DNA of 64,000 nucleotides from Rhizophagus irregularis (GCF_026210795.1 NC_089431.1:1674001-1738000), one strand, 5' to 3'; positions 3,201 to 58,039 are shown, numbered from the stretch's first letter. Numbers and translations: made by a program. Notes: generated by a model not told the origin, from the letters alone.

Positions 3201-3463
3201 TTGTTACTCTTTACTCTTTCTTTTTTTTACTTTTATGTATTCTGTATATTAATAAATACTTGTAATTTTTTATGGTTTAATAAAATTATATCTAATAAAA
3301 CATACATTATATAAACTTATAGTACAGAAAATGAAGTATTATTTTTGAAACATTACGAAATATTAAGTTGTGTAAAATCACAGAATATTACGAATCGTCA
3401 AATTATGGAGCATTACGCATCATAGAATTTCGAAATATTTTAAAAAGTTGCGAAGTATTACGC

Positions 3464-4700
3464 TGTAAACGGCCAAATATCAAGTACGAAAAGAAGATAA
3501 AATTCAACCACCAAATGTAATTATCAAGTATTAAGAATGAACGAATTAATCGTGGATTGGCGTGGATGGATAAATAATTAGCCGAAAAGGATAAACATTT
3601 AAGAAGAGTAATGATCTACATGATGTAATATTTATTGAATGATTGACAAAGAACCAATAGGATAAATAGAGTCGATCATTTGCGGCTTAGCGATCTTTAA
3701 CAATGAGAACGACAAGAAAGAATAATTATAAGCCACAAAAGGTAGATTATGAGCGAAACACATAAAGTGGATTAAAAGAATATATAAAATAATGTCGGAA
3801 AGATTGGAGAACACAAAATAATATAGAAGATAATATGAAAAGATGGCATAAAGATGGAATATAAAAGATAACATATTAAAAAGAACATATATAAAAGATA
3901 ACACAGCCACAAAAGATGAATTATATCTTTACGACATAATATTTGAAAGATTATTTTAAAGAAAAGATAGCACAGCCATAAAAGATGGGTTATAAATTAT
4001 TTCTTTACGATGTAATATTTGAATAATAGAAAAGATAATATATAAAATAATATATAAGATAGCATATTAAAAGATAGCGTATTTAAAATATAGATAGTAT
4101 ATTAGAAAGATAGTTCAAAGATAATATGTAAAGAACATAAAAGATAGTATATAGATAGAATAGAAAGTAGCATAAAAATTGTATATATAGAGAACGGAAT
4201 TCAAAGTAATTCCACAGTTCGCATCCACAGAACTCAATAAAATATAAGTTTTATTTTTTAATTATTAATGAAGTTTAATATTAATTAAAGGTAATAGGTT
4301 CGCCCTAAACTTTAATTAATGTTTGATTAATTAATTTTAATTAATGAAAATTTAAGATGAATTAAATATATACCTTTGGAAGATAATAATTCGTAGCGAG
4401 AGCTATCGCAGTTTGAAATCGAAAGTGGATATAAATTGAGGAAAATTCAGAGAAGTTAATTTTATTTTATACCGTTCAACGCTTTATATTACTAACGCTA
4501 TTTATTTTGTGAACCAAGAATGTTGTTGTATATTGTTCGCTGATGTTATTGTTTGTTAATTATGTTTTGATCACGTGTTTGTTCGTTTGATTGCTCGTTC
4601 GTTCGTTTGTTTGTTCGCTCATTCGTTCGTTCGACCATGAGAACGCCCGTTCGATGTGGCAACCTTGTAAATCGATGACAGGGGGAATTGGGGGATCTCA
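3464..4700 (+). repeat. 5' LTR
   Basis: tgtaaacggcc...ggggatctca; near-identical to 13859-15095 (three transitions spotted by eye). Confidence 0.97.
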
Positions 4701-4702
4701 TA

Positions 4703-4712
4703 TGGTGCATGC
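4703..4712 (+). promoter_or_regulatory. Putative primer binding site (TGGTGCAT..)
   Basis: TGG two nt after the LTR; complementary to a tRNA 3' end ..UGCACCA (Gly-like, not verified). Confidence 0.55.
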
Positions 4713-6271
4713 TCGCAAGAAAGGAAATGATCATCATCACATGATTATTATTATAATGAATATGAAAATTTAATTTCGTTAGTAAGTCACTGATAGGTAT
4801 TATTAATCAATATTTTATTTTAGAATTTATTTTTAGATTTCAGGTTTTGACGAGTTCAAAAGGAACCAATAAATCAACAAGGATTTAATCGAGTTAAAAA
4901 CTTGAAAAGGTGAAAGATTGAAGTTTGAAGTTGTGCAAGTAATCATTTAATCGATAGAAAGCACAAGAATATTTCTTTCGGGAATAAAGTACCTGAGAAA
5001 TTTCATAAGGAGATGTGGAAGTGAAAGATGGATTTTGAAATAAAGATTAATAATGGGAGAACACCAATGTATTATCCGGGGTTCATCTGTGTGGTATGGG
5101 TTACCTCTGAGTTTGAATTTTGGATAAATGTTCGAGATTGGAAAATTTTTATTCTTCGACATTAAAGATTATAACGTATGGGTTACGTCAAATCTGGATA
5201 CCCAGCTCAATAATGCGCAAATTGCTTTGGGGACGGGGAATGAAGATTGTAAAGACACCTACTATCAAGAAACATTGAATGGATAAAATGGGACAAACCT
5301 GAAAACTGTCGTGCTTTTATTTCAATGTGAGGTATCTCCAACGGGTAAGAGATAGAGATAAGCTCAGTATAGGTCCACCAATTTGAGGAAAGATAAGTTG
5401 GTTTAGATGAGTTTTATGGATAGCTGATGACTTTTGAAACTGGATTTTGGAAGGTTAGATTCACCCGTTAAGAGACAAGTCGGCCAACGAAGGAGGAAAA
5501 ATGGATACGTTGTATTGTTACAGGTCCTAGGCTACATTTCAGATGAGGGTTCCTGGTGTAGTGTCCTAGTTCACGCTTTCATTACAATGTTCCGTTAAAA
5601 GAAGAAAAAATAGAAGGATATTTACACATTAACGAGCCGTATAATGAACATTACGTGCAGTATTTAATAATAGAGTAAAATCCGAAAAGAAGGATATTTA
5701 TTTAAAAGAAGAACATTTATTTGAAAAAGAATATTTATTTGAAAAAGAACATTTATTTGAAAAGAAAGACATTTATCTGAAAAGAACGACATTTTGTGTG
5801 TTATAGATTAATTTATATAATATAGAATATATAGTAAGAAGGATTTATGTGGACGATAAGAAAGATTGGAAATTCGCAAACCTTAAGACTCCAAAATTTT
5901 CATAAAGTTTGTGATATGTGAAACTATGAATCACGGTGACGAAAAGATGCGACATGTGAAATTAGGGAAATCGGTGATAAAAGATAAATTTTATGGCGCA
6001 GTAAAAAACCTCCGCAGCCTGAGGAGATCGTGGACTTAGAAAGATTTTTGAAATTTCGAGGCGCAGCAAAAATTAATAGTAAAATATGACGAAGTAAATA
6101 TATAGAACCGAAAGATGGAATCTAAGATTGAAAGAAGTAATCTATTTAAAGATGAAAGAATGTTTAGAAGATCAAAAATAGAAATGATAAGAGTGAAATA
6201 TATATATATAGAAAGAGGAATCCGATTGAGATTCTGGATGGATATTCATAGCAATTTAACTAAAGCATATA

Positions 6272-9200
6272 ATGGAATGGTACCATCAATGGGAAAGCGA
6301 ATATAGAACACATAAAGAAGAACACGAATTAGGAACGGAAGAATTGAATGAATGTTTAAATTGTGAATTATGTTATCCAATAGTAAATGAACCAATAGTA
6401 TTCAAGAAATTTTGGGACGCGTTATTTAAATTTGAAGATGCAATAATAATATACAATGACGTAACGATTAAGGGAGTATTAGATTTATTAAGTATGAATA
6501 ATTCAGAAAGGGAAGATACAATACATAAAGGGAAATGTAGAGACATAATGGATAGAATAACGGAATCAATAAGATATAGAATACAACCAAAAATGAAAGA
6601 AAGGGGATTACGAACAATTATATTAGTAATTGTAAGAGACTGTATTGAAAGAAATCTGGGGAATGAAGTATTTGATAGATTAATTGGAAATCCTGAATTA
6701 ATAGAACACAAATATATTTTGGAAGATTGGGATGTTGAAAGAAGGTTTGAGAAATTTTGGCAATGGTATAGAATCACATCAAAAGAAATTGGACCATTAC
6801 GAGTAAAGACGGGAGCAATAGAGACGTTTAGGGAGTTACTATATGAAGAAGAAGGAATAGCTATGAATGAGGAGAAAGTAAAGGAACTAATGTCCAAAAT
6901 AGAATATGAGAACATACATATAGAAAATGTTCACGAATATCACAAGAATATGATGCAAAAGATAATAAGAATATTTATAGATACTAGGGGATTTACAAAA
7001 GAACCAGAAGATTCAGAAAGTGAAGATAGTCCGGCAAGTTACGAATTGGAAAATGATTCCGAGGAAGAATTAGAGATAATAATAGGAGATAAATCATGGA
7101 AATTTAGTGAATTAAGAAGAAGGTCAAATGTTATGGATGAAGACCAACTGAGGTACATTTGGAAAATAGGAATAAAGTTGATGATAGAAATGGATATATT
7201 GGTAACGAGAATATTTATGGATAAAATTCAAGAGATAGAGGAATTGGATGAAAGGGAAAAAGAATTGAGGATAAAAGAATGGTTAGAAAAAGAAACAATA
7301 AGATGTGAAAAATGTGGTAATAGAAGGTTCGAAATGGACGAAGCGGATAGCGAATGCGGGGAATGTGTTAAAGAAGCGCAGAAGAATGAACAAGATGAGC
7401 TAATAGAATTAAGAAACAACTTAGAAAAATTGGGATATGAAATAGATGTGTCAGAAATTCAAAGAATGAAGAGTTTTGGGGTAAATAATCGAATAATAGT
7501 AACTAAAGAATTTGTGGAAGAATATATGGAAATGATAGATTTGGAAGATAAAGAATTAAGAAAAGAAATTCATAAGTGGTTAAACCAGAATACAACTTGG
7601 TGCGAAAGATGCGAAATAAGATGGATGAATGATATGTTTAGATTAGGATGGATGGATGATATGTCTAGAGTAAGAGGAATGGTATGCAAAGATTGTGAAG
7701 AAGAAAATATCGATGAAATTGATAATCGGGTAAAAAGATTACAGAAGATTTTTGAAGATATTGGAACAATAATAACTGAAGAAGAATTGTTAAGATTAAC
7801 TAGTATGGGATATACAGATGGAGAAATTTTAGATAAAGAATTCATTGAAATCTTTCAAGAAAATAAAAATGAGTCGGAAAATGAATTAAAGAAAAAGTTA
7901 GATAAGTTGTTGAAAGAACAAGCGGGAATAATAGATAGTGAAGAAAGTGGCGAAAGAAGCGATAATGAAGAATCAGAAGAAGATAATACAGATGATTCAG
8001 AAAAGATTGGAGAAATACTAAGTCCGGATGAAAGATGGGACGAAGATATTGAAAATTTTAACGAAGAAGAGTTTGAAGATGAAGTTGAAAATGTTATAAA
8101 TAGAGGGGATAGCGACTTAAGTCAAAATTCAGATACGAATAGTTCATTAAATATTAAAAATTCTGACAACGAAAGTGAATTATCTGATTACAATTTACAA
8201 GATTTATTTCAAGAGAATATATTGAATATGGCAACTGAGGGTCAAGTAAAGAGAATGTTAGAGAACGCTTTAGGCTATCCGGCTAATACTTTGAACGCAG
8301 CAGTAGGAGCAGAAGGAAGTTTGATAGATAGGATCGAAAATGCAGGAAATGAAGCAGGAGGAACAATTAGTATACCACTCTTTTATGGAAGAGAAGATGA
8401 AGATGTTACTGATTGGGTTAGACAATTCGAGGTAGCATTTGCAGCAGTTGGAAAAGCAGCGGGAGCTAATGGCGTAAGACAAGCGGTATACGCAGCAGCA
8501 CATTTAAGAGGAGCAGCAGCGCAATGGTATAATGAAATGAAAGAAGTAAATGCAGGTCACTTAGTGAATTGGGCAGATGCAGATAATGATAATGATTTAA
8601 AGCATAGAATAAAAAGAAGATTTACCAGAGAGGATGTTAGAAGAAAGAAAATGCTAGAATTAAGAAAAACTCGACAAGGAACAAATGAAAGTGTTGAAGA
8701 ATATACAAGAAGATTTAGACAAATATTAAGAATAGCAACTAGAGGACATGCATTAGCAGATGAATATCAAGTAGATTTTTACATCGAAGGATTAGAACCA
8801 ACAATAGGATATCAAGTTAGAAGACAGAATCCAGCGAACTTAAATGGGGCGATAGAAATAGCAGTAAGAGAAGAAGGTGCAAAAGACGAATTTTTAAGAA
8901 AAGCAATAGGAACACCAATTAGTACGAAAATAGATATCGGAAAAGATGACAATAGACAAAATATGTTCGCAAAACCATTGAACGAAAATTATGAGGACGA
9001 ATTAGCTGAAATGTTTAAAGAGAAGGCGAAAATTAGTAAATTAGAAAGAATGGTAGCAAATATGGAGAGAAGATTAAACAATGATAATAGGGATAGGTAT
9101 CAACCAAATATGGGAAGGAGATTAAATAATGGTAATAGGAATAGTTATCAATCAAACCAGAATAGGGTACCAACGTGTTTCGGATGTAATAGAATGGGGC

Positions 9201-9865
9201 ATTACAAGAATAATTGTCCCGAAGGAAGGAATGCGAGAGTAAATATGATGGACGAATATGATGATCAAGAAGAATATTATTATGATGAATATGGATACGA
9301 GGATCCACAATATAACGAAGTATATTATGCACAAGGCTATTACAATGATTATGAAGATAGAGAATTAAATTATCATAATGAGTTATACGCAAAGGATGAC
9401 GCAGTAAAAGGAAGAAGACAATCAAGAAGGACGAGTCCAATAGTGGGATATAAAAATAATAATGAAGAGGGAAATTTACAGGAAGAATTAAGAGAAGCAG
9501 GAAATAGAATGGATGATAGAGAAATACCAACTGGTATGATAGCACCAAATTATATACCTGAACGAACTGAACAAAATGGGGATAGACCAATAGGACCAAA
9601 AGGAATGAGATGGAGTAATAAAAGGCAAGCTTATTATGACCCAACGGAAGGACTAAGAAAATGGAGAGAAGCAGGAGGACCAATGAAGCCCAGGGAGTAT
9701 GGACCAAGATTAACTGACGGAATACCACCTTATGATATTGTAGGGGATGTGAAAAATTGTAGAGCGAATATAACATATGGACAATTAATAAATGGGAATC
9801 CTAAGTATCATAAACAATTGAGAGAAGCAACATATAGACCAAGAAGTATAAACGAAAAAAATTGA
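6272..9865 (+). CDS. gag: Gag polyprotein with ~650-aa N-terminal extension
   Basis: Capsid-like IPLFYGREDEDVTDWVRQFE...HLRGAAAQWY; MHR-like QGTNESVEEYTRRF; CCHC knuckle CFGCNRMGHYKNNC. Confidence 0.9.
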   Translation: MEWYHQWESEYRTHKEEHELGTEELNECLNCELCYPIVNEPIVFKKFWDALFKFEDAIIIYNDVTIKGVLDLLSMNNSEREDTIHKGKCRDIMDRITESIRYRIQPKMKERGLRTIILVIVRDCIERNLGNEVFDRLIGNPELIEHKYILEDWDVERRFEKFWQWYRITSKEIGPLRVKTGAIETFRELLYEEEGIAMNEEKVKELMSKIEYENIHIENVHEYHKNMMQKIIRIFIDTRGFTKEPEDSESEDSPASYELENDSEEELEIIIGDKSWKFSELRRRSNVMDEDQLRYIWKIGIKLMIEMDILVTRIFMDKIQEIEELDEREKELRIKEWLEKETIRCEKCGNRRFEMDEADSECGECVKEAQKNEQDELIELRNNLEKLGYEIDVSEIQRMKSFGVNNRIIVTKEFVEEYMEMIDLEDKELRKEIHKWLNQNTTWCERCEIRWMNDMFRLGWMDDMSRVRGMVCKDCEEENIDEIDNRVKRLQKIFEDIGTIITEEELLRLTSMGYTDGEILDKEFIEIFQENKNESENELKKKLDKLLKEQAGIIDSEESGERSDNEESEEDNTDDSEKIGEILSPDERWDEDIENFNEEEFEDEVENVINRGDSDLSQNSDTNSSLNIKNSDNESELSDYNLQDLFQENILNMATEGQVKRMLENALGYPANTLNAAVGAEGSLIDRIENAGNEAGGTISIPLFYGREDEDVTDWVRQFEVAFAAVGKAAGANGVRQAVYAAAHLRGAAAQWYNEMKEVNAGHLVNWADADNDNDLKHRIKRRFTREDVRRKKMLELRKTRQGTNESVEEYTRRFRQILRIATRGHALADEYQVDFYIEGLEPTIGYQVRRQNPANLNGAIEIAVREEGAKDEFLRKAIGTPISTKIDIGKDDNRQNMFAKPLNENYEDELAEMFKEKAKISKLERMVANMERRLNNDNRDRYQPNMGRRLNNGNRNSYQSNQNRVPTCFGCNRMGHYKNNCPEGRNARVNMMDEYDDQEEYYYDEYGYEDPQYNEVYYAQGYYNDYEDRELNYHNELYAKDDAVKGRRQSRRTSPIVGYKNNNEEGNLQEELREAGNRMDDREIPTGMIAPNYIPERTEQNGDRPIGPKGMRWSNKRQAYYDPTEGLRKWREAGGPMKPREYGPRLTDGIPPYDIVGDVKNCRANITYGQLINGNPKYHKQLREATYRPRSINEKN

Positions 9866-10378
9866 CTACACTCGGTGGGAACTATGAAAAATGAAGAGAA
9901 GAAAACTACAGCAATGAGAACAGAATTAGAAGTTGAAGATCAATTAGTGAGCGTAATAATAGATACCGGAGCAGCAGTAAGTGTGATAACAGATAAATTA
10001 AGAAGAAGATTGAATATACCTATATTTGGAAAAAGTAAATTTAGATGTATAATAGCAAATGGGCAAAAGATAGCAGCGTTAGGAAAAGCAAATATAACTT
10101 TAAGATACAAAGATGAATTAGAGACACTAAAAGAAGTTGAAGTAATAGATTCAGAAGAAGAGGATCTAATTTTGGGAAATGATATATGGAAGCTGTATAA
10201 TGCAAAAATAAATTTCGAAGATCATACCTTAAGGATAGAAGAAAAGGGAGAAATAATAACGATCCCAGTAGGATATGAAAGAGAAGCAATATATGAAAGC
10301 GAAGAGAGTGAGGACGATGAAGAATATGAAAGTAACGATGAGGGAGAGGTATTCAAAATGCACCAGAATTTTAAATAG
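9866..10378 (+). CDS. Retropepsin aspartic protease, in frame with gag after one TGA
   Basis: IIDTGAAVS and DLILGND motifs. Confidence 0.92.
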   Translation, partial: LHSVGTMKNEEKKTTAMRTELEVEDQLVSVIIDTGAAVSVITDKLRRRLNIPIFGKSKFRCIIANGQKIAALGKANITLRYKDELETLKEVEVIDSEEEDLILGNDIWKLYNAKINFEDHTLRIEEKGEIITIPVGYEREAIYESEESEDDEEYESNDEGEVFKMHQNFK

Positions 10379-10413
10379 AGAGTCTTGGCTCTGAAGAGAG
10401 AGAGACGGAAAAG

Positions 10414-12495
10414 ATGCTCGAACCAAGTGAAAAATTTATGCAAAAATTAAGTATAGGGAAAGTGGAAGAACCAATTTGGGAAAATATGGTAAAATTATTA
10501 TTAGAATACCAAGATATTTTGGAATATGACAAAGAAATAGAAGGGAGAACAAAAGCGGCGCAACATGAGATAAAGATAAAAGATGGAGTAGAACCGATAA
10601 AACAAAGAAGATACAAGGAAACAGACGAAAAAGCAAAATTTATAAGCGAAGAAGTAGATAAATTATTAAGACAAGGAAGGATAAGAAAATCAAAAAGTCC
10701 GTGGAGTTCACCGGTTACATTAGCAGGAAAGAAAACGGGAAAATATAGATTCTGTATTGATTACAGAAAGTTAAACAAGATAACTATAATGGATAGTTTT
10801 CCTTTACCAAGAATGGATGAATTGTTAGACAAATATAGAAAAGCAAAATGGTTTTCAAGCATAGATTTAGCAGCAGGATTTAATCAAGTAGAAATGAAAG
10901 AAGAAGACAAAGAAAAAACAGCATTTGTATGTTCAAAGGGATTATTTGAGTATAATGTAATGCCATTCGGTTTAACGAACGCACCAGCAACATTTCAAAG
11001 ATTAATGGATGAAATATTAGAAGAATACATAAATGATTTTGTGGTAGTATATATTGACGATATTATGATATATTCAGGAAATTTGAAAGACCATATGGAA
11101 CATGTGGAAAAAGTATTAAAGAAGTTACAAGAGAATAATTTGATAATAAAATTAAAGAAATGTAGATTTTTGGAAAGAAATATCGAATTTTTAGGACATA
11201 TAGTAGGAAATGATGGATTGAGGCCGGACGATAAAAAGATAGAAAAGATAAAAGAAATGAAGGCACCAACAACGGTGAAAGAAGTAAGATCATTTTTAGG
11301 ACTTTGTTCATATTACAGAAAATTTGTGAAGAATTTTTCAAAGATAGCAAGACCAATAAGCGACTTGAGAAAGAAAGGAGTACCTTTCATTTGGGGAAAA
11401 GAACAACAAGAAGCGTTTGAAAAATTAAAAGAAAAGTTAATACAATATCCAATATTGCGACATCCAGATTGGAAGAAAGAATTTCTATTAATAACAGATG
11501 CATCAGGAAAAGGATTAGGTGCAGTATTAAGTCAAAAAGATGAAAAAGGAAAAGAAGTAGTAATAGCATATGCAAGTAGAAGTTTATTACCAGCAGAAGA
11601 AAATTACCCGATAACAGAATTGGAATGTTTAGGAATAGTTTGGGGAATTCAACATTTTCATAAGTATCTAATCGATAGAAAATTTAAAGTAATAACAGAT
11701 CACAGTGCATTAAAAGGATTAATGAACGCAAAAATACCGAAAGGAAGAAGAGCAAGATGGGTAATGGAATTACAGCAATATAATTTCGAAGTAGTACATA
11801 GGTCGGGAAAAGAAAATACGAACGCCGACGCACTAAGTAGATTATTAAAGATAGTGGAGGAACAACCAGAAATAGTAATAATCGATGGAGTAGACGGATT
11901 GGGAAAAACAAGTATAGTACAAAATTTAATTAAAGAATGGGAAGAACAAGGATTAAAAGTAAGATTCAATACTTATAAAAGAAGAAGAAAAGATAAAGAT
12001 GAATTTCACGAATCAAAGATGGATACAGAATGGAAATTCAGAAAAGAAGTAGTGGAACAAATAAATAGAAGAATGGTAGAATACGATGAAGATACAGATA
12101 TAATAATTTTGGACAAATCACCATATTGTGAATATTATTACCAAAAGACGAAAAGTTTTGACAGAGGATTAATTACTCCACATGGAAATCATGAGATGGA
12201 GAAAGAAATATTCAGACTGAAAGAAACAATAGATAAATCAATAGTGATATTTTTAGAAAAAGATGGCAATGTATGTTGGGAAAATTACATTGGAAGAGAA
12301 ACAAAGAAAACGGAAAAACCATCATATCCAACATTAAAGAAGGATGAATATTTGGACATGGTTAAAATGTTTGAAGAAAATCAAAGTGTGTATAAAGATA
12401 CCAAAAGATACAGTCGAGTAAAAGTTAAAAATGACAATAGTAGTTGGAGAAAAGTATTTAAAGAGGTGGAAAAATGGAGAAGAGCACAGAACTAA
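10414..12495 (+). CDS. pol: Reverse transcriptase-RNase H fused to a P-loop nucleotide-kinase-like domain
   Basis: RFCIDYRKLN, YIDD, TDAS..GAVL, NADALSR; then IIDGVDGLGKTS and IILDKSPYCEYYYQ. Confidence 0.93.
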   Translation: MLEPSEKFMQKLSIGKVEEPIWENMVKLLLEYQDILEYDKEIEGRTKAAQHEIKIKDGVEPIKQRRYKETDEKAKFISEEVDKLLRQGRIRKSKSPWSSPVTLAGKKTGKYRFCIDYRKLNKITIMDSFPLPRMDELLDKYRKAKWFSSIDLAAGFNQVEMKEEDKEKTAFVCSKGLFEYNVMPFGLTNAPATFQRLMDEILEEYINDFVVVYIDDIMIYSGNLKDHMEHVEKVLKKLQENNLIIKLKKCRFLERNIEFLGHIVGNDGLRPDDKKIEKIKEMKAPTTVKEVRSFLGLCSYYRKFVKNFSKIARPISDLRKKGVPFIWGKEQQEAFEKLKEKLIQYPILRHPDWKKEFLLITDASGKGLGAVLSQKDEKGKEVVIAYASRSLLPAEENYPITELECLGIVWGIQHFHKYLIDRKFKVITDHSALKGLMNAKIPKGRRARWVMELQQYNFEVVHRSGKENTNADALSRLLKIVEEQPEIVIIDGVDGLGKTSIVQNLIKEWEEQGLKVRFNTYKRRRKDKDEFHESKMDTEWKFRKEVVEQINRRMVEYDEDTDIIILDKSPYCEYYYQKTKSFDRGLITPHGNHEMEKEIFRLKETIDKSIVIFLEKDGNVCWENYIGRETKKTEKPSYPTLKKDEYLDMVKMFEENQSVYKDTKRYSRVKVKNDNSSWRKVFKEVEKWRRAQN

Positions 12496-12555
12496 AAATA
12501 TAGAACACATAACGAAAATAACAAATTCAGAAGTAGAATCAATTAAAGAAATATT

Positions 12556-13782
12556 ATGGAGGAAAATAATTATAAGAGAATAATTGACAATATCGAAAAA
12601 GAGAATAAATATGAATTGAAAGAAGGAATTTTATATAGAATAAAAGGACAAAACAGATTTAGAGTAATCAGGGATTATGAATACGAGGGATTGATGTACA
12701 TGATGCATGATAATGAATTATCAGGACATTTTGGGATAGAAGCGACATTAGATAGAATAAAAGAAAATTATTGGTGGAAAAATATGAAAGAAGATGTAGA
12801 AGAATATGTAAGGACGTGTTGGAATTGTCAAATGAGAGGAAAACCAAGAGGAAAGAACGAATTAACGCCAATAAAGATAAATGAACCATTTGAGATGATT
12901 GGGATAGATATAGTTGGACCGTTAAAAGAGACAGAAAAGGGAAATAAGTACATTGTAGTAGCAATGGATTATTTTACAAAATGGCCCGAGGCCGCACCAC
13001 TAAAAGAAGCTACAGCAAAAGAGGTAGTAGAATTTATTTGGAGGGACATAATTTGTAGACATGGATGTCCAAAGAAAATAATTAGCGATAGAGGGACTCA
13101 CTTTAACAATAAAATGATGGAGGAATTAGTAGAAAGATGTGGGATAAATCATAGATTAAGTACACCATATAGGCCACAAACAAATGGTTTGGTCGAAAGA
13201 TTCAATAAAACCTTATGCGAAGGATTAGCCAAATTAGGAGAAGAAGATTGGGATAAACATATACCATCCGTATTATTTGCATACAGAACAAAGAAGCAAT
13301 CGTCAACAAGAATTAAACCTTTTTATGCAACGTACGGAAGGAGAGCGAAATTACCATTAGACAGAGATGAAAACAAGATAACGTTAGCTAATAGAGTAAA
13401 AATACTAATTGAGGAGCTACCGGTAATAAGAAGAAAAATAAAAGAAAATGTGAAAGAAGCTCAAGAAAAACAAAAACAACAACACGACAAAAGGGGAATT
13501 AGAAAACCTAAATTTGAAATAGGAGAAAAAGTATTATTATATGAAGCATGGAGAGAGAAACAATGGTCTGGAAAATTACAGAGCAAATGGAAAGGACCAT
13601 ATTTAATTCACGAAGAATTTGGAAACGGAGCATATAAACTCAAAGAATTAGACGGAAGAATATTGAAAACACCACAAAATGGAGAATGGTTAAAGAAATT
13701 TTATGATCGAAGGGAATTTACACCAAAAATAGTAATCAAAGGAAAAGAGGTATTCGATAAGACCCGAGTTCGATTCAATTAG
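12556..13782 (+). CDS. Gypsy integrase (HHCC, DDE, GPY/F)
   Basis: H..GH..CWNC, GIDIVGP, SDRGTHF, NGLVERFN, WKGPY. Confidence 0.95.
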   Translation: MEENNYKRIIDNIEKENKYELKEGILYRIKGQNRFRVIRDYEYEGLMYMMHDNELSGHFGIEATLDRIKENYWWKNMKEDVEEYVRTCWNCQMRGKPRGKNELTPIKINEPFEMIGIDIVGPLKETEKGNKYIVVAMDYFTKWPEAAPLKEATAKEVVEFIWRDIICRHGCPKKIISDRGTHFNNKMMEELVERCGINHRLSTPYRPQTNGLVERFNKTLCEGLAKLGEEDWDKHIPSVLFAYRTKKQSSTRIKPFYATYGRRAKLPLDRDENKITLANRVKILIEELPVIRRKIKENVKEAQEKQKQQHDKRGIRKPKFEIGEKVLLYEAWREKQWSGKLQSKWKGPYLIHEEFGNGAYKLKELDGRILKTPQNGEWLKKFYDRREFTPKIVIKGKEVFDKTRVRFN

Positions 13783-13844
13783 AATTATTATGAACGAGAC
13801 CCGAGTTTGATTCTTTTAAAGTTATTTGTGAGGTCACAAATAGC

Positions 13845-13855
13845 GAAGAGGGGGA
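13845..13855 (+). promoter_or_regulatory. Polypurine tract
   Basis: gaagaggggga just before the 3' LTR. Confidence 0.85.
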
Positions 13856-13858
13856 TAA

Positions 13859-15095
13859 TGTAAACGGCCAAATATCAAGTACGAAAAGAAGATAAAATTC
13901 AACCACCAAATGTAATTATCAAGTATTAAGAACGAACGAATTAATCGTGGATTGGCGTGGATGGATAAATAATTAGCCGAAAAGGATAAACATTTAAGAA
14001 GAGTAATGATCTACATGATGTAATATTTATTGAATGATTGACAAAGAACCAATAGGATAAATAGAGTCGATCATTTGCGGCTTAGCGATCTTTAACAATG
14101 AGAACGACAAGAAAGAATAATTATAAGCCACAAAAGGTAGATTATGAGCGAAACACATAAAGTGGATTAAAAGAATATATAAAATAATGTCGGAAAGATT
14201 GGAGAACACAAAATAATATAGAAGATAATATGAAAAGATGGCATAAAGATGGAATATAAAAGATAACATATTAAAAAGAACATATATAAAAGATAACACA
14301 GCCACAAAAGATGAATTATATCTTTACGACATAATATTTGAAAGATTATTTTAAAGAAAAGATAGCACAGCCATAAAAGATGGGTTATAAATTATTTCTT
14401 TACGATGTAATATTTGAATAATAGAAAAGATAATATATAAAATAATATATAAGATAGCATATTAAAAGATAGCGTATTTAAAATATAGATAGTATATTAG
14501 AAAGATAGTTCAAAGATAATATGTAAAGAACATAAAAGATAGTATATAGATAGAATAGAAAGTAGCATAAAAATTGTATATATAGAGAACGGAATTCAAA
14601 GTAATTCCACAGTTCGCATCCACAGAACTCAATAAAATATAAGTTTTATTTTTTAATTATTAATGAAGTTTAATATTAATTAAAGGTAATAGGTTCGCCC
14701 TAAACTTTAATTAATGTTTGATTAATTAATTTTAATTAATGAAAATTTAAGATGAATTAAATATATACCTTTGGAAGATAATAATTCGTAGCGAGAGCTA
14801 TCGCAGTTTGAAATCGAAAGTGGATATAAATTGAGGAAAATTCAGAGAAGTTAATTTTATTTTATACCGTTCAACGCTTTATATTACTAACGCTATTTAT
14901 TTTGTGAACCAAGAATGTTGTTGTATATTGTTCGCTGATGTTGTTGTTTGTTAATTATGTTTTGATCACGTGTTTGTTCGTTTGATTGCTCGTTCGTTCG
15001 TTTGTTTGTTCGCTCATTCGTTCGTTCGACCATGAGAACGCCCGTTCGATGTGGCAACCTTGTAAATTGATGACAGGGGGAATTGGGGGATCTCA
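13859..15095 (+). repeat. 3' LTR
   Basis: Direct repeat of 3464-4700. Confidence 0.97.
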
Positions 15096-15099
15096 ACGC

Positions 15100-23526: not shown

Positions 23527-23990
23527 GTCGTCGGGCTGGGTGTGGGAGGTGCAAGCACCACCCACCTCCGGGTCTACGACCCGTCGCAGTACCTCCTTCC
23601 CCCTACGGGGGATCAGGAATCCCCTATATCTGTCACCATCTGTCAATAACATCAGTCATATAACAATATACTAAAAAAGGATAAATAAGGGAAAAGAGAG
23701 GAAAATACGATAGAATCAGAGGGGTATGACAGATATGACGGATATGACAGACGTTTCAGAAAAATCGGGAGAGGGGTATCCCCAGAAAAAAGTTTTGATT
23801 TTACCCCCCAGATCTGTCATTCTGTCATAGTTATGTCATATGATCAGGATTCCGTCTAATAATCTGTTGGAAGCAGTGAGATAGCAAACCAGATAAGTTA
23901 GCAGGTAAGCCCCTAGAAGGTCTATAAAGCCAGTAAGACCAACCCCGTCCCGCCCCCGTCAGAAAAAATAAGTAATTGAATAATGAGTAT
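23527..23990 (+). repeat. Left TIR
   Basis: Reverse complement of 45581-46044 with few mismatches; starts GTCGTCGGGCTGGG. Confidence 0.95.
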
Positions 23991-31186: not shown

Positions 31187-34100
31187 TTAAAATCGACACA
31201 CCACCCTGCTAAAGCTGTTAGTAAGTTGCACCGTTAGACGACCCATAAAACCCGAATAGTGATTAAACCAAGGCAAACCATATTTCATCGAGTTCTTTAA
31301 ATAATCAACGTCGGAGTCACGTGCGGCGTCAGAAAGGGTCGGAGGAGGTAAAGTTGAGAAAGGTAAGTACGTGGACTTTGGCAAATTTGAAGGCCGAGAA
31401 AGTTTGAGTTTATGAGTAATATTCATCGTGTCTTCCCATATAGATTTATCATAGGAGCGCGGTAGCCAAATTCGTTTTCTGATCTTTTGGATAAAGTGAT
31501 TGTGAATAGCAGAGATAACCTTCATCGCAGAATTTCGTGGAATAGAAAGTTCTTCAAAAAATTCGACAAAGGATTTCGGAAGGCAGCCACGGACAAGGCT
31601 ATATGAAGTCCAATTTGAAGAAGAAAAGGACCAACAAGGAAGAGATTTAAATTTGTTAATAATTAGAGACGGATCTTTGTTAACAAGATCACCAGCTTCT
31701 TGAAGTTTGTTGATAAAATGATTTTGGTAAGAGAGGAGAATCTGTTCCATAATGATTCGTCTACATTTGCACATAAATAAGTGCATGAAATCTTCCTTGG
31801 AGTCGAGGCATGAACGACATAATAAGATGTCGATATACAAGTCCGGGCGGATTCTTTTAAGATGTTCCAAGATAGGTAAATCATCCAAAAAGAGTTTGAA
31901 TTTGAAGGTTCGATGAGAAGAAGCATGAGCACGAGTAAAAGAAGCATCATGCTGAGGTTCAGCATTTAACGTGAACCAGGTAAGATCCCAATCGATTACA
32001 AAGTCTGAGATGGAAGATAAAGCAATGGTAAAGTTAAATCGCGATAAACGCGTTAATCTATGCATCCACAGCATTTGCGAATATTGCTTGAATAGGCGTC
32101 GTGGGTTAGATTCTCATAAAATATCATCATATTTTAATAAGAAATCGTGAGGAGATACTTGATCCAGATCAGAAAGAAGAATTGCTGAAGAGGAAGTATG
32201 CGCAGAGTTGGCCAGTGAGTCCGCGTAGTCATTGTAGAAATTACCAGAGTGACCTTTCACTTTAACGGCCATGACGGTTAAAGATTTGGATGAAATGAGA
32301 CGTTCAATAATAGCCCAAAGTTCAAAATTGGTGGTCTTGTAATAAAGCCTACTATTAGAATAAGAAAAGGTAGCACATAGACGAAGACCGTCTATGGCAG
32401 ATTGAGAGTCAGTATGAATAGTGACCGTTGAAGAGGGAGGAGTGACTGTAAGAGCAGCATGTATAGTGGCGATTTCAGCTCTTGTAGAAGAAGGCCAATT
32501 GTGAATAATTCCATGAGCGTGAGCAGCGATAGATTGGAAAAAGCCAGCGCCATCAAGGACTTGAACCCAAGACCAACCCATAGAAACATCAGGAGTGCCA
32601 AGGTTAATTAAAGAACCATCGGTATAAAAACAATAATGGTTATCAGGAGGAGTCGCTAACGGTGAGGCAGCAAAAGCAAGAGGGGCAGCCGAACTCAAAG
32701 AGGGAGGAGGAAAAGGAGAGGGGAGAATAACCACATCTTCTTGTGAAAAATTAGGTTGAATGTCCAAATGACCATAATAGGATCTTACAGTCTCGTCAAG
32801 GTCCGCCCAAGTAAAAGGAGAAGTAATAGTGGTGGTGTCATGTCTAATACGCTCCTGCGTTGTTGGGAGAAGTAAAGATCTAAGAGGAGAGAGTTTTGGG
32901 ATGATACATAAAGGAGTAACATCTGTTGGATTACTTTTAGTATGGGTAACCGGTACATGTTTAGAACAACCGGGACAAGGAGTAAGCGTGATAACATCAT
33001 TAGGTCGAATCACACAATCAGAGGTCCAATGGACAATCTTGCAGGAATATTGTTGTTTACTGAGCTGTTTTCCAAAAAGAGGAGAGCCATCATCATCCAA
33101 AGTTACGATCCATTTCATGGATTTGTGAGAGGAACCAAAGGCGGGGACCAAGTCGATATTGGAAGGAATAGCATCAGAAAAGAACCGATCCAAAAGAAGA
33201 GAGTTGGAATCTGGAGTAGTGACGCATTGATGAATGTCATTGAACCATTTGTGTGGGAGGACACGATGACCTTTCTTGCTCGATAAATTGGATAGATAAA
33301 TGTTCCAAGTAATCATATGGGTTCCTTGAGGCGTAATAAATTGTGATAGGTAATAAAGTTGCAAGCTTCTAAGACGTCGGAAGTAAGAAATAAAAATTTT
33401 TGGAGTCATAACATCATATAAAGGTGTATGACCATTGGACATAGTAAGGTCAGGCAAGGTTGAAAGTTGTGAACGCAACAACTTGAAGGGAGTGGTGGTC
33501 AGGAGAGCAATAGTACAAGCGATATAATCCTGTTTAAAAGCAAAAAGTTTAGACCATATAGTCCAATCTTTAACCAACAATGGGGAAATAGGAATTAAAA
33601 AAGAAAATTGAATTAAACGTAATCTATATAGAAATAAAATTTTCATAAAGGAAGAAGAAGAATTAGCTAATAAAAACAAATTAGTTAAATGTGTTTGTGA
33701 TTGGTGAAAAAATAAATTAATCAATCCCAAGCCCTGAGATAAGAACAAAATAGAATCAGGGAGTACTCGTGAAAAGTTGGCCTTATGTTTAACCAAGGAA
33801 CGGATACTGCTGGTTGCCGAGGCACATTCAGATTCGGAGAGGTGAGTGACTTGCATACGATATTCCAGCTTCGGAATAAGGACGGTATTGTGCAGATAAA
33901 CAACTTGTTTTGCAGATAGTTTGGCAGGGCGAACGATAGCCGCGAAGGAATTGCATTCACGAGCAACTTGCTTCTTGACAAAATCACGAGAACCGGTGAC
34001 ATTGAACCAGACGCCTAGGAAGCGAAAAGAGCTATTCATGGAGATAGGCACAATAGAAATGGAAGGAACTTTGTTCAGTCCAGATAATTGCAAGTCAAAC

Positions 34101-36808
34101 ACGACTGGAGAAGGCGAAGAAACTGAAGTGGGAGGCAATGAATTAGTAATTAAAACATATTTGTTGTGATTAGCGGAAGTGTTATTGATTTGATAAAATT
34201 CTTCCGTAATAGAAAGCATTGATTCCATTCCAGATTTGGATGACGAAATTAAAGTAGAGTCATCCATAAAGACCAAATTATTGATACGTAATCCATCTGA
34301 ATTAGTCTGAGCTGAAGGATCGATTAAAGGGGGAGCATGAAGCGTATATGGATCCATCATTTCTTTTTTGAGAACAGTCAATAGAGGGTCTATATATATG
34401 ACCCAGAGTAAAGGAGAGATAACTTCGCCTTGATCTATACCAATGCGAACACGGTAAGAAGGAGTAGTTCCATGAGCAGTAAAAATGCGATTAGAGCGTT
34501 TCATGAACAGGGATAAAATAAACTTGGTAGCAGAAGCAGGAAGTTTAATGCGTTCTAGAGCGAAACGCAACATCTTGAGTTCAACCGAGTCGAAAGCCTT
34601 TGAAATATCTTGCGAAAGGATCCAAAGCGGCGATTTGTTGACATGAGCATCATGGATAATAGATTCAAGAACGACAATAGGGTCGCGACAAGAACCACCT
34701 GGGAGACCGGCGAAGTTACCTCCTTTGAGAACTTCATTTGAAGCCAAAATGGAAGCGAGACGATTATAAAAAAGTTTGACCAAAGATTTTCTAATTACTT
34801 CAAGCAGAGTAATAGGTCTTGTATTCTTTAGTTGACATTTCCATTCGTGAGGTTTAGGGATAGGAAAGACCATAGCCTGACGCCATAAATCAGGAATATC
34901 TGCAGTGCGAAGACATGATTGGACAAGGATTAAAACCAAAGCAGAAGCATTTGAACCCAGACGCTTGAGCATCTCATAAGTAATCATAGAAGGACCAGGA
35001 GCTTTGTCATTAGGCATAGAAGAGACCGTAGACAACCATTCTTCTAGAGTAGGAGGATCCAATAAAGAATTATAAATAGAGGGATCTATATCGTCCATAG
35101 AGTGATAAGCAGAAGACCATCGTTCAGGGAGAGCTGAAATGTTTTCTGGAGACGATGATTTCATAGGAACGGAATTTTGGAAGTGGTCGATAACGGCATC
35201 GTCAATATCATGTGGGTCTGTCAATAATTTTGGATGTGTAGGGTGGTCGATAAACACACGATCCAAGGTAATACGACGTCGAGTTCTTGAAAGAGCGGAA
35301 TCAATAAATGAAGAAATGTCAGTTGCAAAATTGTTATCCCTATCATCCAATTTAGCACGAATGGAAGAATCTTGAAAATCTTTTTCTTTAAGAAGAAGAA
35401 GGCCATAAAGGGCGGTAGAAATAATCTTTAAAGAGTCTAATAGAAATTTAAAATCGTCTTGCCTACAAATGGATAAAGAAACAGGCAAAACAGGGGGAGA
35501 AGGAATAACCTTCTTATAAAGATATAGAATATTTTGAAGTCTAATGAAATGGGTGGACCAAGTACGTTCATATCTATTATAATAAGTAGAAGGATATTTT
35601 CGCAATAAACGTATCGAATGCAAAAGACGGCTGAGGAAACGATAATGTTGAGTTAAGGCTTCCAAATCCTTGGGCATCGTGGGTGTATGCTGATTACCAA
35701 CTATAACAGATGGAAGGGAAGCATTAGCAGCTTTCAATATACGAGAATGTAAATATTCGCATTGTTGATTAATATGCCATGTTGAGAAGGTTGATGGCGG
35801 TACGTCGCATAAAGAGTCAGTATGAGCAGAGAAGAATTCACATTGTTGATCAGCCACTGAATCAAATTTGAATATGCGGCGATTTTGACGTTGAAGTTGT
35901 TTAGCGCGAGCAACCTTGATAGACGCAAACAAGAGTGAATCATCGAAATAAGCGATGATGGAATTATGATCAGAAGAGCAGGTGTCTTGAGCGTCAAATA
36001 TATAGGAGGTGAGAGCAAAGCTTTTAAGCATTGGACAAGACCAAACATAGTCGATACGAGTAACTTGATCGTCACGGTGAAAAGTGCCTAAGGAATCAGA
36101 AGCGTTAACAGGAATAGTTTCTTCATATCCATGAGATAAAAGATGATGTAGCAAACGATAAGTTCGTTGGGAAGCAACAGAAGGGCGGTTAAAATAAATA
36201 GGATAATAGGCATCTAAATGCATATTGAAATCGCCACAAATGGCGTGATAAAAATTTTGTTGTTTAGTTTGCACTAATAATTGTAAAAGGAGATCAATGG
36301 TTTCAGATCGTAATTTAGAATCGGAAATAGGAGGGATATATATAACAAAAATACGCAATTTAATGTTGCCTTTAAAATAAAGGTCAACAGATAAAATACG
36401 TGAGGAATGTGAAACAAAATCTTGTACATGAGAAGCAAGAGATTTTTCAATAAAAAGGGAAACGCCACCAGTAGATTTGACTTGTTTAGTTTTATCTATG
36501 TCAGAGGAAAAGACAGTATAATTAGGAAGGCGTTTAGATAAAAAATGAATTTGCTTGGGGGATAAATGGGTATCTACAATACCACCAAAGGAAATATGTT
36601 TAAGGTTGAAAAAGTTTGAAATTTGTTCAATTTTAACTTGGCTATTATGTCGAAGGCCATTAATATTAAAGGATGAAATATTAAAGGAATTGGGGATAGG
36701 GGAAGAATTTAATGTAGTAAATAAAGATTCATGTTCTGAAAAATTATAAGTATCTACAGGATTGAGTGGGTTTCGAACAAGCGTATCATAATTAAAATTG
36801 TCAGACAT
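31187..36808 (-). pseudogene. LINE ORF2 (APE endonuclease, RT, RNase H, C-terminal zinc finger), one in-frame TGA at 32114-32116
   Basis: SFNINGL, GDFN, RIDY, SSDH; DISKAFD, QGEVISP, FMDD; YTDGS, TDSQ, VKGHSG; CRSC..H..C after the stop, same frame. Confidence 0.93.
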
Positions 36809-36855
36809 TAGAACACTATGATAATAAAGTACGGGGAAAGGAGGTGAGAAATCAG

Positions 36856-38988
36856 TTATTGCGAAGGAGCAGAAGCTCGATCGGAGGGAGAACCACCAAG
36901 AGAAGCAATAAAACCTTGGATGGAACCAGTGAGCGATTGTAAAGTATCTTTAATCACTTTTTGATCTTGAATAACGGAGTTCAATTCGTCTTGCGGGGAA
37001 GGGTTAGAAGTGGATGCAGAAGTAGAGTGTGGAGCTTTGTTGGAAGTAGATGGAGGGGAAGAGGATTTCATTGAACCAGCAGATAAGGGAGCATTGGGGT
37101 GCTGGATTAAGGTACCAGTGGTTTCAGGAGGGTCTTCTTCCATTCGATCAGGTTCAGTATTAACGACAGGTGCAGAGGGAGGATTAATGCCTAAATGGGC
37201 TTCTATAGCAGAGAGCCGTTGGTTGTTAAGTTCAAGGGATGAGATGCGGGATTCCACACGAGCAACATCTAGCTGAAGGTTCTTCAAAACATTAAGAATG
37301 TTGAGAGCAGCATCAAGGGCACTAGAAGAATTTGGATCAAGGAGCGGAGCACGAGCATTGGACGAAAAGGAAACAGATCTATCTTTGCCTTTACGGTTGT
37401 TGGAAGGTGTACGTCCATGAGCAGTTGAGGAGGAGTTAGTTGAGCCAGAGGAGGAGGAGGGCTTAGCATTAATATTGGAATTATTATTATTAGATCTATT
37501 GGAGTTGGAATTAGAACGATGAGCTGAGGCCAAACGATCCCGAGATTTAGATCGAGATCGAGAATGAGAATTATTGCGTGGCGTTCTTTGTTGGGCGGGC
37601 CTTTGGCCAATATTGAAGCGTTCTTTAAGAGCAGCCACAGGGTCACGTGTACGTGAACGACCACGGCGTTGATTAAGTGGACAGGAAGTAGGAGCACAAC
37701 CGAGTTTACCACAACGGTGGCAAAAAGCTTTCGAATCGTTGGATGTACCCCATCGAAGAGTACGACCTTGGAAACCAATAGTCTGCTCCATAGCGGCATC
37801 CATTGTCTCTTGCGAGTTGAAAGTAACATAAGCCCAAGGCTTGGGTTTATAAGAATTTAGGGAAAGGGGAATGTTAATAGCTTTTGCTCCATGTTCCTTG
37901 ACCAAGGGAGCGAGATGGATATCTTTGGTATTAGCGGGAAGTCCAGAGAGAACAGCTACGAACGCTCTACGAGCAGCTTTTTGATCCAAAGAGTAATGGC
38001 ATGGGGTAACACGTAAGCAGGTGGAAAAGCAGTAAACTGCCCATTGAGTTGTGAAACGGGAGATGGCATCGGCATGATCATAGACAATGCGAGCTTGTTG
38101 CATCTTAGCACCTTTCCTTGAGTAGAGATGAAGGGCAAGGAGATTGCCGAATTTCTTGAAGTAGGATTGGAGTTGCGGTTTAGTAATGAAGAACGGTATA
38201 TCCGTGACTTGAATTGCACGGAGGTCTTCATCGGACCGGAGCTGTTTGGGATCGTACAAGTGGAATTGTAGGTCCGGAAATTCAGAGTGCGTACTACCGA
38301 CGCACAGGTCACGAGCCTCCGCAGTGTGAAAATGAATGATAAGACGTTTAGCGTCCCCTGAACCAGTCATACGAGCCCGACCGGTATATGATTCATATGT
38401 TTCTAAAAACAAATTGTTAACGGCATCAATGATTGCCTTATTAGTTTTAAGTTTCTCTAGAGTTTGGGGAGCAGAGTTGGGCGCAGCCGCAGCCAGGAAA
38501 TCTTGGCGATTAATGGTAATGGTAGGGGAGGGATCAACAGCCTGATCGGGTGATGTACCATCATTCACGTCCATATTAGGGGACGCGTTAGGGGATGAGT
38601 TATTTTCTTTGTTTCGAGGTGCATGAATAGACGCGTTAGCTCCAGTGGACGCGTCTTGGCCAGGCGCAGTAGGCGCAGCAGAAATATTCGGGGTAGAAGC
38701 TTGAGTATTTTCTTGGGCGGTGCTGCGGGAATTATTTTGTTGAGGAATAGCGGTCAAAGTTGAACCAACTAAACCACCGTCAGCCGGCGCGTCGGCAACG
38801 AAATCTTCATAGTCTTCATCCATGGAGTCCTTTGTAAGTATACGGGAACGTTTTTGGGAATTATTATCACTATCAGAACCAGAGTTGTCAGAGAGTTGTT
38901 TTTTATTATTTTTCTTTTCTTGACGAGCAGCCTTATTACTATTAGGATTATAACTGCCGCCACCTCTTCTAGCAAGGTTTCTAGACAT
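36856..38988 (-). CDS. LINE ORF1 (RRM-like domains, zinc-knuckle-like motif, coiled coil)
   Basis: IQVTDIP..YFKKFG, VLSGLP..WAYVTF, CHRCGKLGC. Confidence 0.85.
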   Translation of the reverse strand: MSRNLARRGGGSYNPNSNKAARQEKKNNKKQLSDNSGSDSDNNSQKRSRILTKDSMDEDYEDFVADAPADGGLVGSTLTAIPQQNNSRSTAQENTQASTPNISAAPTAPGQDASTGANASIHAPRNKENNSSPNASPNMDVNDGTSPDQAVDPSPTITINRQDFLAAAAPNSAPQTLEKLKTNKAIIDAVNNLFLETYESYTGRARMTGSGDAKRLIIHFHTAEARDLCVGSTHSEFPDLQFHLYDPKQLRSDEDLRAIQVTDIPFFITKPQLQSYFKKFGNLLALHLYSRKGAKMQQARIVYDHADAISRFTTQWAVYCFSTCLRVTPCHYSLDQKAARRAFVAVLSGLPANTKDIHLAPLVKEHGAKAINIPLSLNSYKPKPWAYVTFNSQETMDAAMEQTIGFQGRTLRWGTSNDSKAFCHRCGKLGCAPTSCPLNQRRGRSRTRDPVAALKERFNIGQRPAQQRTPRNNSHSRSRSKSRDRLASAHRSNSNSNRSNNNNSNINAKPSSSSGSTNSSSTAHGRTPSNNRKGKDRSVSFSSNARAPLLDPNSSSALDAALNILNVLKNLQLDVARVESRISSLELNNQRLSAIEAHLGINPPSAPVVNTEPDRMEEDPPETTGTLIQHPNAPLSAGSMKSSSPPSTSNKAPHSTSASTSNPSPQDELNSVIQDQKVIKDTLQSLTGSIQGFIASLGGSPSDRASAPSQ

Positions 38989-39092
38989 GTTAGAAGGTAT
39001 GAGTTGGGTAAAATATAAGAGTTGTTAGTACGAAGATATAAAATTTTCTTTCCGAAAATTTTTGGTCAATAGATCGGCGGTAAGAGATCTAT

Positions 39093-45580: not shown

Positions 45581-46044
45581 ATACCCATTGTTCAATTACT
45601 TATTTTTTCTGATGGGGCGGGACGGGGTTGGTCTTACTGGCTTTATAGACCTTCTAGGGGCTTACCTGCTAACTTATCTGGTTTGCTATCTCATTGCTTC
45701 CAACAGATTATTAGACGGAATCCTGATCATATAACAGAACTATGACAGAATGACAGATCTGGGGGGTAAAATCAAAACTTTTTTCTGGGGATACCCCTCT
45801 CCCGATTTTTCTGAAACGTCTGTCATATCCGTCATATCTGTCATACCCTCTGATTCTATCGTATTTTCCTCTCTTTTCCCTTATTTTATCCTTTTTTAGT
45901 ATATTGTTATATGACTGATGTTATTGACAGATGGTGACAGATATAGGGGATTCCTGATCCCCCGTAAGGGGGAAGGAGGTACTGCGACGGGTCGTAGACC
46001 CGGAGGTGGGTGGTGCTTGCACCTCCCACACCCAGCCCGATGAC
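45581..46044 (-). repeat. Right TIR
   Basis: Inverted copy of 23527-23990. Confidence 0.95.
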
Positions 46045-46645: not shown

Positions 46646-46692
46646 ATTATGCCAAAATGAATTTCTTAGCCCAAAAAATTTCTGGGATGGAC

Positions 46693-48345: not shown

Positions 48346-48375
48346 TCTGATTCTCTTTTATAATCACAAAAAAGA

Positions 48376-51933: not shown

Positions 51934-52059
51934 GTTATGAAGAGCTCGAAAAAATGTTATTTAGCGCTCTTAAGTCTAAAGAGGATCTTAACGAATTGTG
52001 TGAGAAATTATTAGTACGCTATGATAAACTAAATGGGAAATATCTTCTACACGGCTAGA

Positions 52060-52510: not shown

Positions 52511-52730
52511 TTTTACAAATAGACAAAAAAAAATCTTTCGAAAAATTACCGGTATATTTTTGATATTTTTTCGGTATTCGTTTAATCTCTGTTCGGTATT
52601 ATCGATATATTTTCGGTAGATTCGGTGTATTCGGTGTATTCGATATATTCGGTCTAAAAAATTTGCCAAGTAAAAAATTTTCAATCGCATGTTTTTTTTA
52701 ATATACTAGCAACTAAGCCGAAAAAAGGCT

Positions 52731-53729: not shown

Positions 53730-53733
53730 TCGA

Positions 53734-58010: not shown

Positions 58011-58039
58011 TTTTTTTTCATTTTTTTTTCCTTTCTTCT

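Follow-up and report, generated by a model that had tools for sequence, protein, structure and literature searches.

A predicted kinase domain of the thymidylate/deoxynucleoside kinase fold in a Ty3/gypsy element of Rhizophagus irregularis

dUTPase is the nucleotide-metabolism cargo for which LTR elements and retroviruses offer a precedent, being described in elements of Postia, Phanerochaete and Tuber, in the bdelloid elements Juno, Vesta and TelKA and in non-primate lentiviruses (PMC2864245, PMC5408684, PMC4531489). Such cargo is thought to aid replication in non-dividing cells (PMC2864245, PMC4531489). The original prediction for the DNA considered here took dUTPase to be the usual cargo of this kind, in keeping with the fungal and rotifer elements just named (PMC2864245, PMC5408684), and proposed that a gypsy element carries a kinase, which it considered unusual. 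Within the literature searched, with Repbase, Dfam, GyDB and subscription journals outside the search, no LTR element with such a kinase, or with a split, stop-start-linked integrase, is described; in the main texts of PMC8647823, PMC11075540, PMC3248453, PMC13465315, PMC2864245, PMC5408684, PMC4531489 and PMC12440569 a kinase is either absent or a protein kinase only.

The element and its surroundings

The window, by which we mean the whole 64,000-nucleotide stretch of DNA that was analysed, contains at 3464-15095 a Ty3/gypsy LTR element of 11,632 nt that looks intact. A gypsy-type RT and capsid and the order PR-RT-RH-IN are present, the catalytic motifs of RT (YIDD), RNase H (acidic) and integrase are all intact, and the best PDB match of the RT-RNase H region is the Ty3 RT (E 2.6e-104). 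The features of the element are as follows:

3464..4700, plus strand: 5' LTR, TG...CA, 1237 nt
4701..6271, plus strand: leader of 1.57 kb, with 37 ATGs and several short ORFs
4703..4715, plus strand: probable primer-binding site, TGG start, 2 nt past the LTR, inferred from sequence
6272..9865, plus strand: gag ORF, Ty3 capsid and weak CCHC match; stop TGA, with CTA next in frame
9866..10378, plus strand: aspartic protease ORF in the gag frame; first ATG at 9884, stop TAG
10375..12495, plus strand: RT-RNase H-kinase ORF of 706 aa, counted from stop to stop, in the -1 frame relative to protease; first ATG at 10414
11866..12495, plus strand: predicted TMK/dNK-fold kinase domain, C-terminal to RNase H; TAA at 12493-12495
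11884..11913, plus strand: P-loop DGVDGLGKTS, TMK-type, with acidic residue D14
12112..12144, plus strand: DKSPYCEYYYQ, DR-type motif with Lys for Arg; conserved E93 and Y96
12274..12309, plus strand: predicted LID helix with conserved Y145, R148, E149 and K152, the LID assignment being inferred from the fold
12496..12555, plus strand: 60-nt spacer without ATG, probable relic of an 81-aa ORF seen in a related locus (L001)
12556..13782, plus strand: separate integrase ORF, 408 aa, with HHCC finger, rve core and weak SH3 match
13845..13858, plus strand: polypurine tract, 5' of the 3' LTR
13859..15095, plus strand: 3' LTR, 1237 nt

The two LTRs differ by 3 mismatches over 1237 nt, and a 4-nt target-site duplication (ACGC) lies at 3460-3463 and 15096-15099; the near-identity of the LTRs from which recent movement had been proposed is thus borne out, and a recent insertion of the element is supported. 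Both of the motifs on which the kinase assignment had been based lie in the RT-RNase H frame (ORF 10375-12495), IVIIDGVDGLGKTS at 11872-11913 and IILDKSPYCEYYYQ ending at 12144, with a linker of ~10 residues between the end motif of RNase H and the kinase motifs. The integrase gave no chromodomain match in Pfam. At the other end of the element, gag has an acidic N-terminal extension of ~650 aa (6272-8230) with several CxxC pairs and no Pfam match.

The remainder of the window also holds other mobile DNA. Inverted repeats at 23527-23956 and 45614-46044, 95-99% complementary and ~22 kb apart, flank ORFs for an integrase with chromodomain, a protease, an A32-like ATPase and a DUF5906 primase-helicase-like protein, and the unit that they bound is a Maverick/Polinton-like element, into which a LINE on the minus strand (31187-39024; RRM ORF1, endonuclease-RT ORF2) is inserted. 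At 45896-61930 lie the remains of another large DNA element, with a further A32 ATPase, an rve integrase and pieces of a family-B DNA polymerase, and AT-rich arrays of short palindromic repeats occupy 57032-58810.

Distribution, selection and reading frames of the kinase

Homologue searches recovered 55 near-length and 37 longer sequences (~90 in all) from Rhizophagus irregularis, R. clarus, Glomus cerebriforme and metagenomes, 40 of which are joined to RNase H. The closest kinase homologues, up to 97% identical, come from named R. irregularis assemblies, which makes that arbuscular mycorrhizal fungus, or one very closely related to it, the almost certain host; identity ranges down to 44%, and some homologues already bear the automatically assigned database name 'thymidylate kinase'. 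Among 25 metagenome loci, 22 are of gypsy type or are fragments of the gypsy-type kinase. No close relative was found in viral contigs and GTDB genomes, the searches of which were pattern-seeded and would miss distant relatives, nor in INPHARED phages.

Against the two closest loci, dN/dS of the kinase is 0.096 (L001; RNase H 0.05) and 0.098 (L002; RT 0.074, RNase H 0.091, integrase 0.119), with a binomial p < 1e-17 for both pairs, and it is below 1 in 24/24 loci scored (of 25), the distant pairs being near saturation. At ~0.10 the kinase is under purifying selection at a level within that of RT, RNase H and integrase (0.05-0.12) and, with ~90 homologues, it is widespread; the domain is therefore neither unique to one copy nor evolving neutrally, and is almost certainly a conserved cargo of the family that is kept by selection. 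The sub-threshold Pfam score reported below would suit a piece of host sequence that was captured recently and evolves neutrally, or an artefact of the assembly, but homologues with identity down to 44% in several species and metagenomes, the dN/dS value and independent Logan contigs that span both the RNase H-kinase and the kinase-integrase junctions rule this out, and we consider it hardly conceivable. RNase H and kinase distances are correlated (Mantel r 0.51, 0/2000 permutations, 26 sequences, some of them near-copies); they are discordant in some rows (P0067, P0088, L011), pointing to recombination or faulty gene models.

The one part of the original prediction that fell was the placement of the kinase inside a continuous Pol. 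The kinase forms the C-terminus of its ORF, which ends with the TAA at 12493-12495, and since integrase is a separate ORF from the ATG at 12556, the domain is not an insertion within one Pol polyprotein. The same arrangement, a kinase stop and a separate integrase ORF, occurs in 15/15 elements showing the junction (14 metagenome loci with both the kinase end and the integrase start, plus the window), and the integrase ATG is homologous in all 15 while its frames relative to the kinase are divided 5/5/5. A 1-nt deletion breaking an RNase H-kinase-integrase fusion in the window copy was considered and rejected, because the homologous ATG is found in all three frames. In 9/15 elements, three of which are close relatives, the integrase ATG lies at -11 to +3 nt from the kinase stop (four ATGA, one TAATG); as the chance of any ATG in a 15-nt window is ~35%, the argument rests on the conserved integrase start in varying frames.

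The window copy has no such overlap, its kinase and integrase being separated by the 60-nt ATG-free gap, which is probably what remains of the 81-aa ORF of L001 after loss of its start and an internal deletion. Longer spacers mostly hold a small ORF of 47-52 aa or 81 aa, often overlapping its neighbours. A conserved 47-52-aa ORF follows the kinase stop in L004, L006, L007, L010 and L016, usually overlapping or close to the flanking stops and starts, and a different, coiled-coil-like ORF of 81 aa lies between kinase and integrase in L001 and L005. On the other side, the 10 loci showing the RNase H junction are equally divided, with the kinase fused to RNase H in 5, as in the subfamily of the window, and free as its own ORF in 5. 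The fusion to be looked for in sister elements therefore exists on the RNase H side in some subfamilies and is absent from others, and the kinase is fused to integrase in none of the 15 elements showing that junction.

Production of integrase by termination-reinitiation past the kinase stop is the favoured mechanism and moderately likely, and stop-start coupling of this kind is described for the UAAUG of SART1 and for the fungal viruses CHV1 and HvV190S (PMC10275272); alternatively, integrase may be expressed by splicing or from a subgenomic RNA. Five database gene models (P0082-84, P0086, P0089) join kinase and integrase via predicted introns. Among 15 listed of 21 contig joints none has GT..AG ends, the contigs being patchy, from four runs guessed to be RNA, and thus no evidence against splicing. 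One joint, in contigs from two runs of a single study (also guessed RNA), connects 12498 to 13577 with 5-nt microhomology and is probably a genomic deletion, i.e. a copy that has lost most of integrase and kept the kinase.

The upstream junctions were compared between the window and L002. At gag/protease (9855-9885 versus 364-395) an in-frame TGA followed by CTA lies in 16 identical nt, and at protease/RT (10365-10415 versus 877-927), where the frame changes by -1, ~40 nt are nearly identical, so that the nucleotide sequence itself is conserved at both despite saturation of synonymous sites. The two junctions probably act as recoding signals, with readthrough at gag/protease; no canonical -1 slip accounts for protease/RT, since the site has a stop in the -1 frame, and hairpins at the two junctions are no better than those of shuffled sequences (z -1.4 to +0.6).

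Fold, active site and proposed function

An AlphaFold model of the kinase domain, built on a 35-row alignment, reached pLDDT 91.8 and pTM 0.88, and predicts membership of the TMK/dNK fold group. In a search of 48,161 PDB representatives its top matches were human dGK, with 197 residues aligned at Z 16.1, and S. aureus TMK, with 183 at Z 15.9, the rmsd being 3.2 for each; a second comparison placed TMK, AbmG, dGK and dCK level at Z 16.1-16.3, and the best matches overall span Z 15.9-16.3 over 181-207 residues. An S. tokodaii PPK3 homologue scored Z 14.1, PPK2 up to 12.2 and adenylate kinases up to 11.8. Foldseek against PDB and against viral models agrees with the TMK/dNK fold. The NMP-kinase-type fold anticipated for the domain is thus predicted, at Z ~16, although identity to solved kinases is 7-17%. 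Folding RNase H and kinase together from a single sequence was uninformative (pLDDT 38.8).

Profile searches give a graded answer. The phrog_761 thymidylate kinase profile matches residues 4-208 (E 6.6e-14) and is matched by 30/30 aligned family members, and thymidylate kinase is the best match in both Pfam (PF02223) and NCBIfam (TIGR00041); the scores are, however, below the curated cut-offs of both Pfam (20.4 versus 27 bits) and NCBIfam (20.4 versus 83 bits, with weak matches in 30/30 members). PF01712 (dNK) has no match in the window domain at E<=1, and one relative (L022) scores 25.9 against its cut-off of 27. PDB sequence searches returned P-loop-level matches such as FtsY and PPR noise, nothing more, and a protein language-model atlas placed phage, archaeal and bacterial clusters, partly labelled TMK/dNK/AAA_28, at 0.95-0.96. 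Since the Z scores are tied, the fold does not separate TMK from dNK, and the domain cannot be assigned to either enzyme.

Residue conservation was counted in an alignment of 86 gypsy-type sequences, a redundant set that includes partial ones, and 17 from the outgroup, rows with a gap being left out of each count. D14 (71/76 gypsy-type, 17/17 outgroup), K18 (72/74, 17/17), R63 (79/81, 17/17), Y96 (84/84, 17/17) and R148 (83/83, 15/15) are all conserved, as is K88 (83/84, 17/17), a lysine in place of the DR arginine, so that the motif reads DK. The P-loop carries the acidic residue of the TMK type (GxDGxGKT/S), K42-R45, R63, R73, K88, R148 and K152 make up a conserved basic cluster, and DK, R63 and N71 are specific to the family. 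An acidic residue stands at +6 from the DK aspartate, a spacing that we take to be dCK/dGK-like, and Y-Q at +9/+10 has what we take to be TMK-type spacing; D-K-S-x-Y-S/C-E as a whole presumably corresponds in spacing to the E-R-S motif of dNKs with its base-reading acid. No conserved Glu follows strand 2 in the alignment, the position being judged from sequence order and not from structural superposition. The active site, as read from these residues, is therefore atypical, combining a TMK-type P-loop and a DR to DK change with no dNK-type glutamate found. In dTMP kinases the DRX arginine is described as essential (PMC12995831).

The domain is very probably an active phosphotransferase, and would be an ATP-dependent kinase. 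The DR to DK change and the basic KRRR patch would also suit a domain whose catalysis is dead or secondary and which is retained to bind nucleic acid or to mediate dimerisation, in the service of RT or packaging; the catalytically inactive dUTPase-like protein needed by BIV is a parallel (PMC4261571), but conservation of the Walker A Lys, P-loop Asp and LID Arg across both subfamilies, and the occurrence of the kinase as a free ORF, untethered to RT, in half of the loci showing the RNase H junction, make such a role quite improbable.

The relatives of the domain bear on both its function and its origin. Kinases of this family, ~40% identical, occur in three loci (L022, L024, L025), in two of which (L022 and L025) the kinase is fused behind a Nudix hydrolase; 14 further hits were obtained, 10 of them with a Nudix Pfam match. 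A profile run against 1.84 billion representatives matched 135, of which 49 at E up to 1e-10; among 24 of the 135, the strong matches belong either to gypsy kinases or to relatives of the Nudix-kinase type, a Diversispora eburnea protein with Nudix and P-loop is weak, and canonical TMKs appear only at E > 1e-6. Most gypsy kinases have an N-terminal extension of 40-60 residues that aligns in exact register with the Nudix C-terminus (mean score +1.6 at shift 0, as against -13 to -35 at the 36 alternative shifts; HHalign E 0.0011 at a probability of 20%). An earlier test of this alignment, on a less varied set of sequences, had fallen short of significance (E 0.085). Many gypsy kinase copies thus probably keep a Nudix remnant, and it is likely that a Nudix-kinase module was captured and its Nudix part then lost stepwise and for the most part, the loss being complete in the subfamily, and so the copy, of the window. 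The kinase tree is quick and unrooted, with long Nudix branches, so it is the distribution among outgroups, together with the remnant, that speaks for a direction from Nudix-kinase to gypsy. Nudix-dNK fusions (subfamilies C/F) and Nudix-retrotransposon fusions (K) are described in Glomeromycota (PMC12210691), and fit such a capture.

The Nudix-kinase loci themselves (L022 579-2249, L024 1-4330, L025 775-1624) are mobile-element-like, with the order Nudix-kinase, a TAA followed directly by ATG, Mrr-like nuclease, coiled-coil ORF and CCHC gag-like ORF. The Mrr-like nuclease ORF directly follows the kinase in L022 and L024, the latter then also having the CCHC gag-like ORF, and there is no RT in the DNA at hand from the three loci.

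Taken as a whole, the original interpretation holds for the predicted fold, for the occurrence of the domain in sister elements, for selection of the purifying kind and for a recent insertion, and fails for a continuous Pol. Its functional core, which we restate as a dNMP kinase supporting the element's reverse transcription, we regard as evenly poised. The acceptor would be a dNMP and not a nucleoside, since the TMK P-loop carboxylate is present and the general-base Glu of dNKs was not found after strand 2, and since the conserved K42, R45 and K88 could hold the 5'-phosphate; specificity need not be for thymine, as the +6 acidic residue resembles that of dCK/dGK. Also relevant is the Nudix hydrolase borne by its nearest relatives, since Nudix too is an enzyme of the nucleotide pool. 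Lys in place of the DRX arginine throughout, the missed curated TMK thresholds, the low identity to solved kinases and the TMK/dNK tie count against a dNMP kinase, and the host presumably has its own essential TMK, so that what an extra one would add is not obvious. Host NDP kinase would complete the step from dNDP to dNTP, fusion to RT-RNase H would allow the kinase to be co-packaged into the particle, and the benefit, by analogy to dUTPase cargo, may be replication where dNTP pools are low, i.e. in non-dividing compartments.

Fungi generally salvage nucleosides poorly, and a deoxynucleoside (salvage) kinase would open nucleosides to the element. dGK, dCK, Giardia dAK and AbmG share the leading structural scores with TMK, the D-K-S-x-Y-S/C-E stretch resembles the dNK motif to which the base-reading Asp133 of dCK is relevant (PMC1802566), and Nudix-dNK fusions are reported in Glomeromycota (PMC12210691). 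No conserved Glu is found, however, where dCK has its general base Glu53 (PMC1802566), the P-loop is of the GxDGxGK type and Pfam matches across 35 members favour TMK (29/35) over dNK (8/35), all of which leave a salvage kinase unlikely. The Nudix fusion, which looks ancestral, the family-specific active site and the tie with AbmG, a modified-nucleoside kinase, could be accommodated by a kinase of non-standard nucleotides, which recycles or detoxifies damaged or modified ones or counters host nucleotide-based restriction, originally with its Nudix partner; the Nudix domain is, however, lost in the gypsy lineage, and we think this reading improbable. Arbuscular fungi hold large polyP stores, and these could feed a polyphosphate-dependent nucleotide kinase exapted in the manner of PPK2/PPK3. 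Such an enzyme would be in keeping with the match of the S. tokodaii PPK3 homologue, with the conserved basic cluster and with the account of PPK3 as an exaptation within the dTMP kinase superfamily (PMC12995831), but PPK2 scores lower, and PPK3 as described works as a heteromer, together with a partner subunit, and no such partner is evident here; we rate it as quite remote.

Significance and comparison with known systems

Tentatively, and with somewhat less than even confidence, we propose a gypsy lineage of arbuscular mycorrhizal fungi that is organised in an operon-like manner (gag, protease, RT-RNase H, kinase, small ORF, integrase; stop-start coupled) and has its own dNTP-supply kinase, drawn from a Nudix-kinase module circulating among Glomeromycota mobile elements. 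If true, an anabolic nucleotide enzyme would be met in a retrotransposon for the first time, and the kinase would possibly define a new, DK-motif class. Large DNA viruses build their own precursors; dUTPase removes a wrong substrate, and a kinase would mean that an LTR element builds precursors of its own. It would then be possible to test whether the supply of dNTPs is limiting for transposition in the multinucleate and often dormant cells of fungi, and the domain is of small size, has a high-confidence prediction and can be assayed directly. With an integrase ORF that stands alone and has stop-start overlaps, LTR elements would join the few eukaryotic cases of polycistronic RNA, and the annotation of such copies as a broken pol, or their joining through invented introns, would be explained.

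Considering the enzymes first, the domain is like thymidylate kinases (PF02223, TIGR00041, phrog_761) in its fold (Z ~16), GxDGxGK P-loop and LID arginine, and unlike them in the DR to DK change, the acidic +6 residue, an identity of ~10-15% and scores below curated cut-offs. With dCK/dGK (PF01712) it shares the fold (Z 16.1) and S-x-Y-S/C-E after a basic residue, but differs in its P-loop and in that the general-base glutamate was not found. The Nudix C/F/K proteins of Glomeromycota (PMC12210691) match it in showing Nudix-kinase and Nudix-retrotransposon fusions in the same fungal group, although, compared by description only, the accessible text places no kinase in a retrotransposon.

As a mobile element, it resembles Ty3/gypsy (Metaviridae) in LTRs, target duplication, PBS/PPT, the gag-PR-RT-RH-IN order and Ty3 as best RT match, and departs from it in the kinase added after RNase H and in the split into gag, PR, RT-RH(-kinase), (small ORF) and IN, with IN an ATG-started ORF of its own and not cut from one Pol. 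It shares with dUTPase-bearing LTR elements and retroviruses a nucleotide-metabolism enzyme in pol, where the position of dUTPase varies and includes RT-IN, but here the fold is unrelated and the chemistry opposite, a P-loop phosphotransferase as against a hydrolase. Finally, several relatives have ATGA/TAATG overlaps at the kinase/integrase junction like those of the stop-start coupling in SART1, CHV1 and HvV190S; the differences are that the window copy has its 60-nt gap, that the carrier is an LTR element and that several successive junctions are involved.
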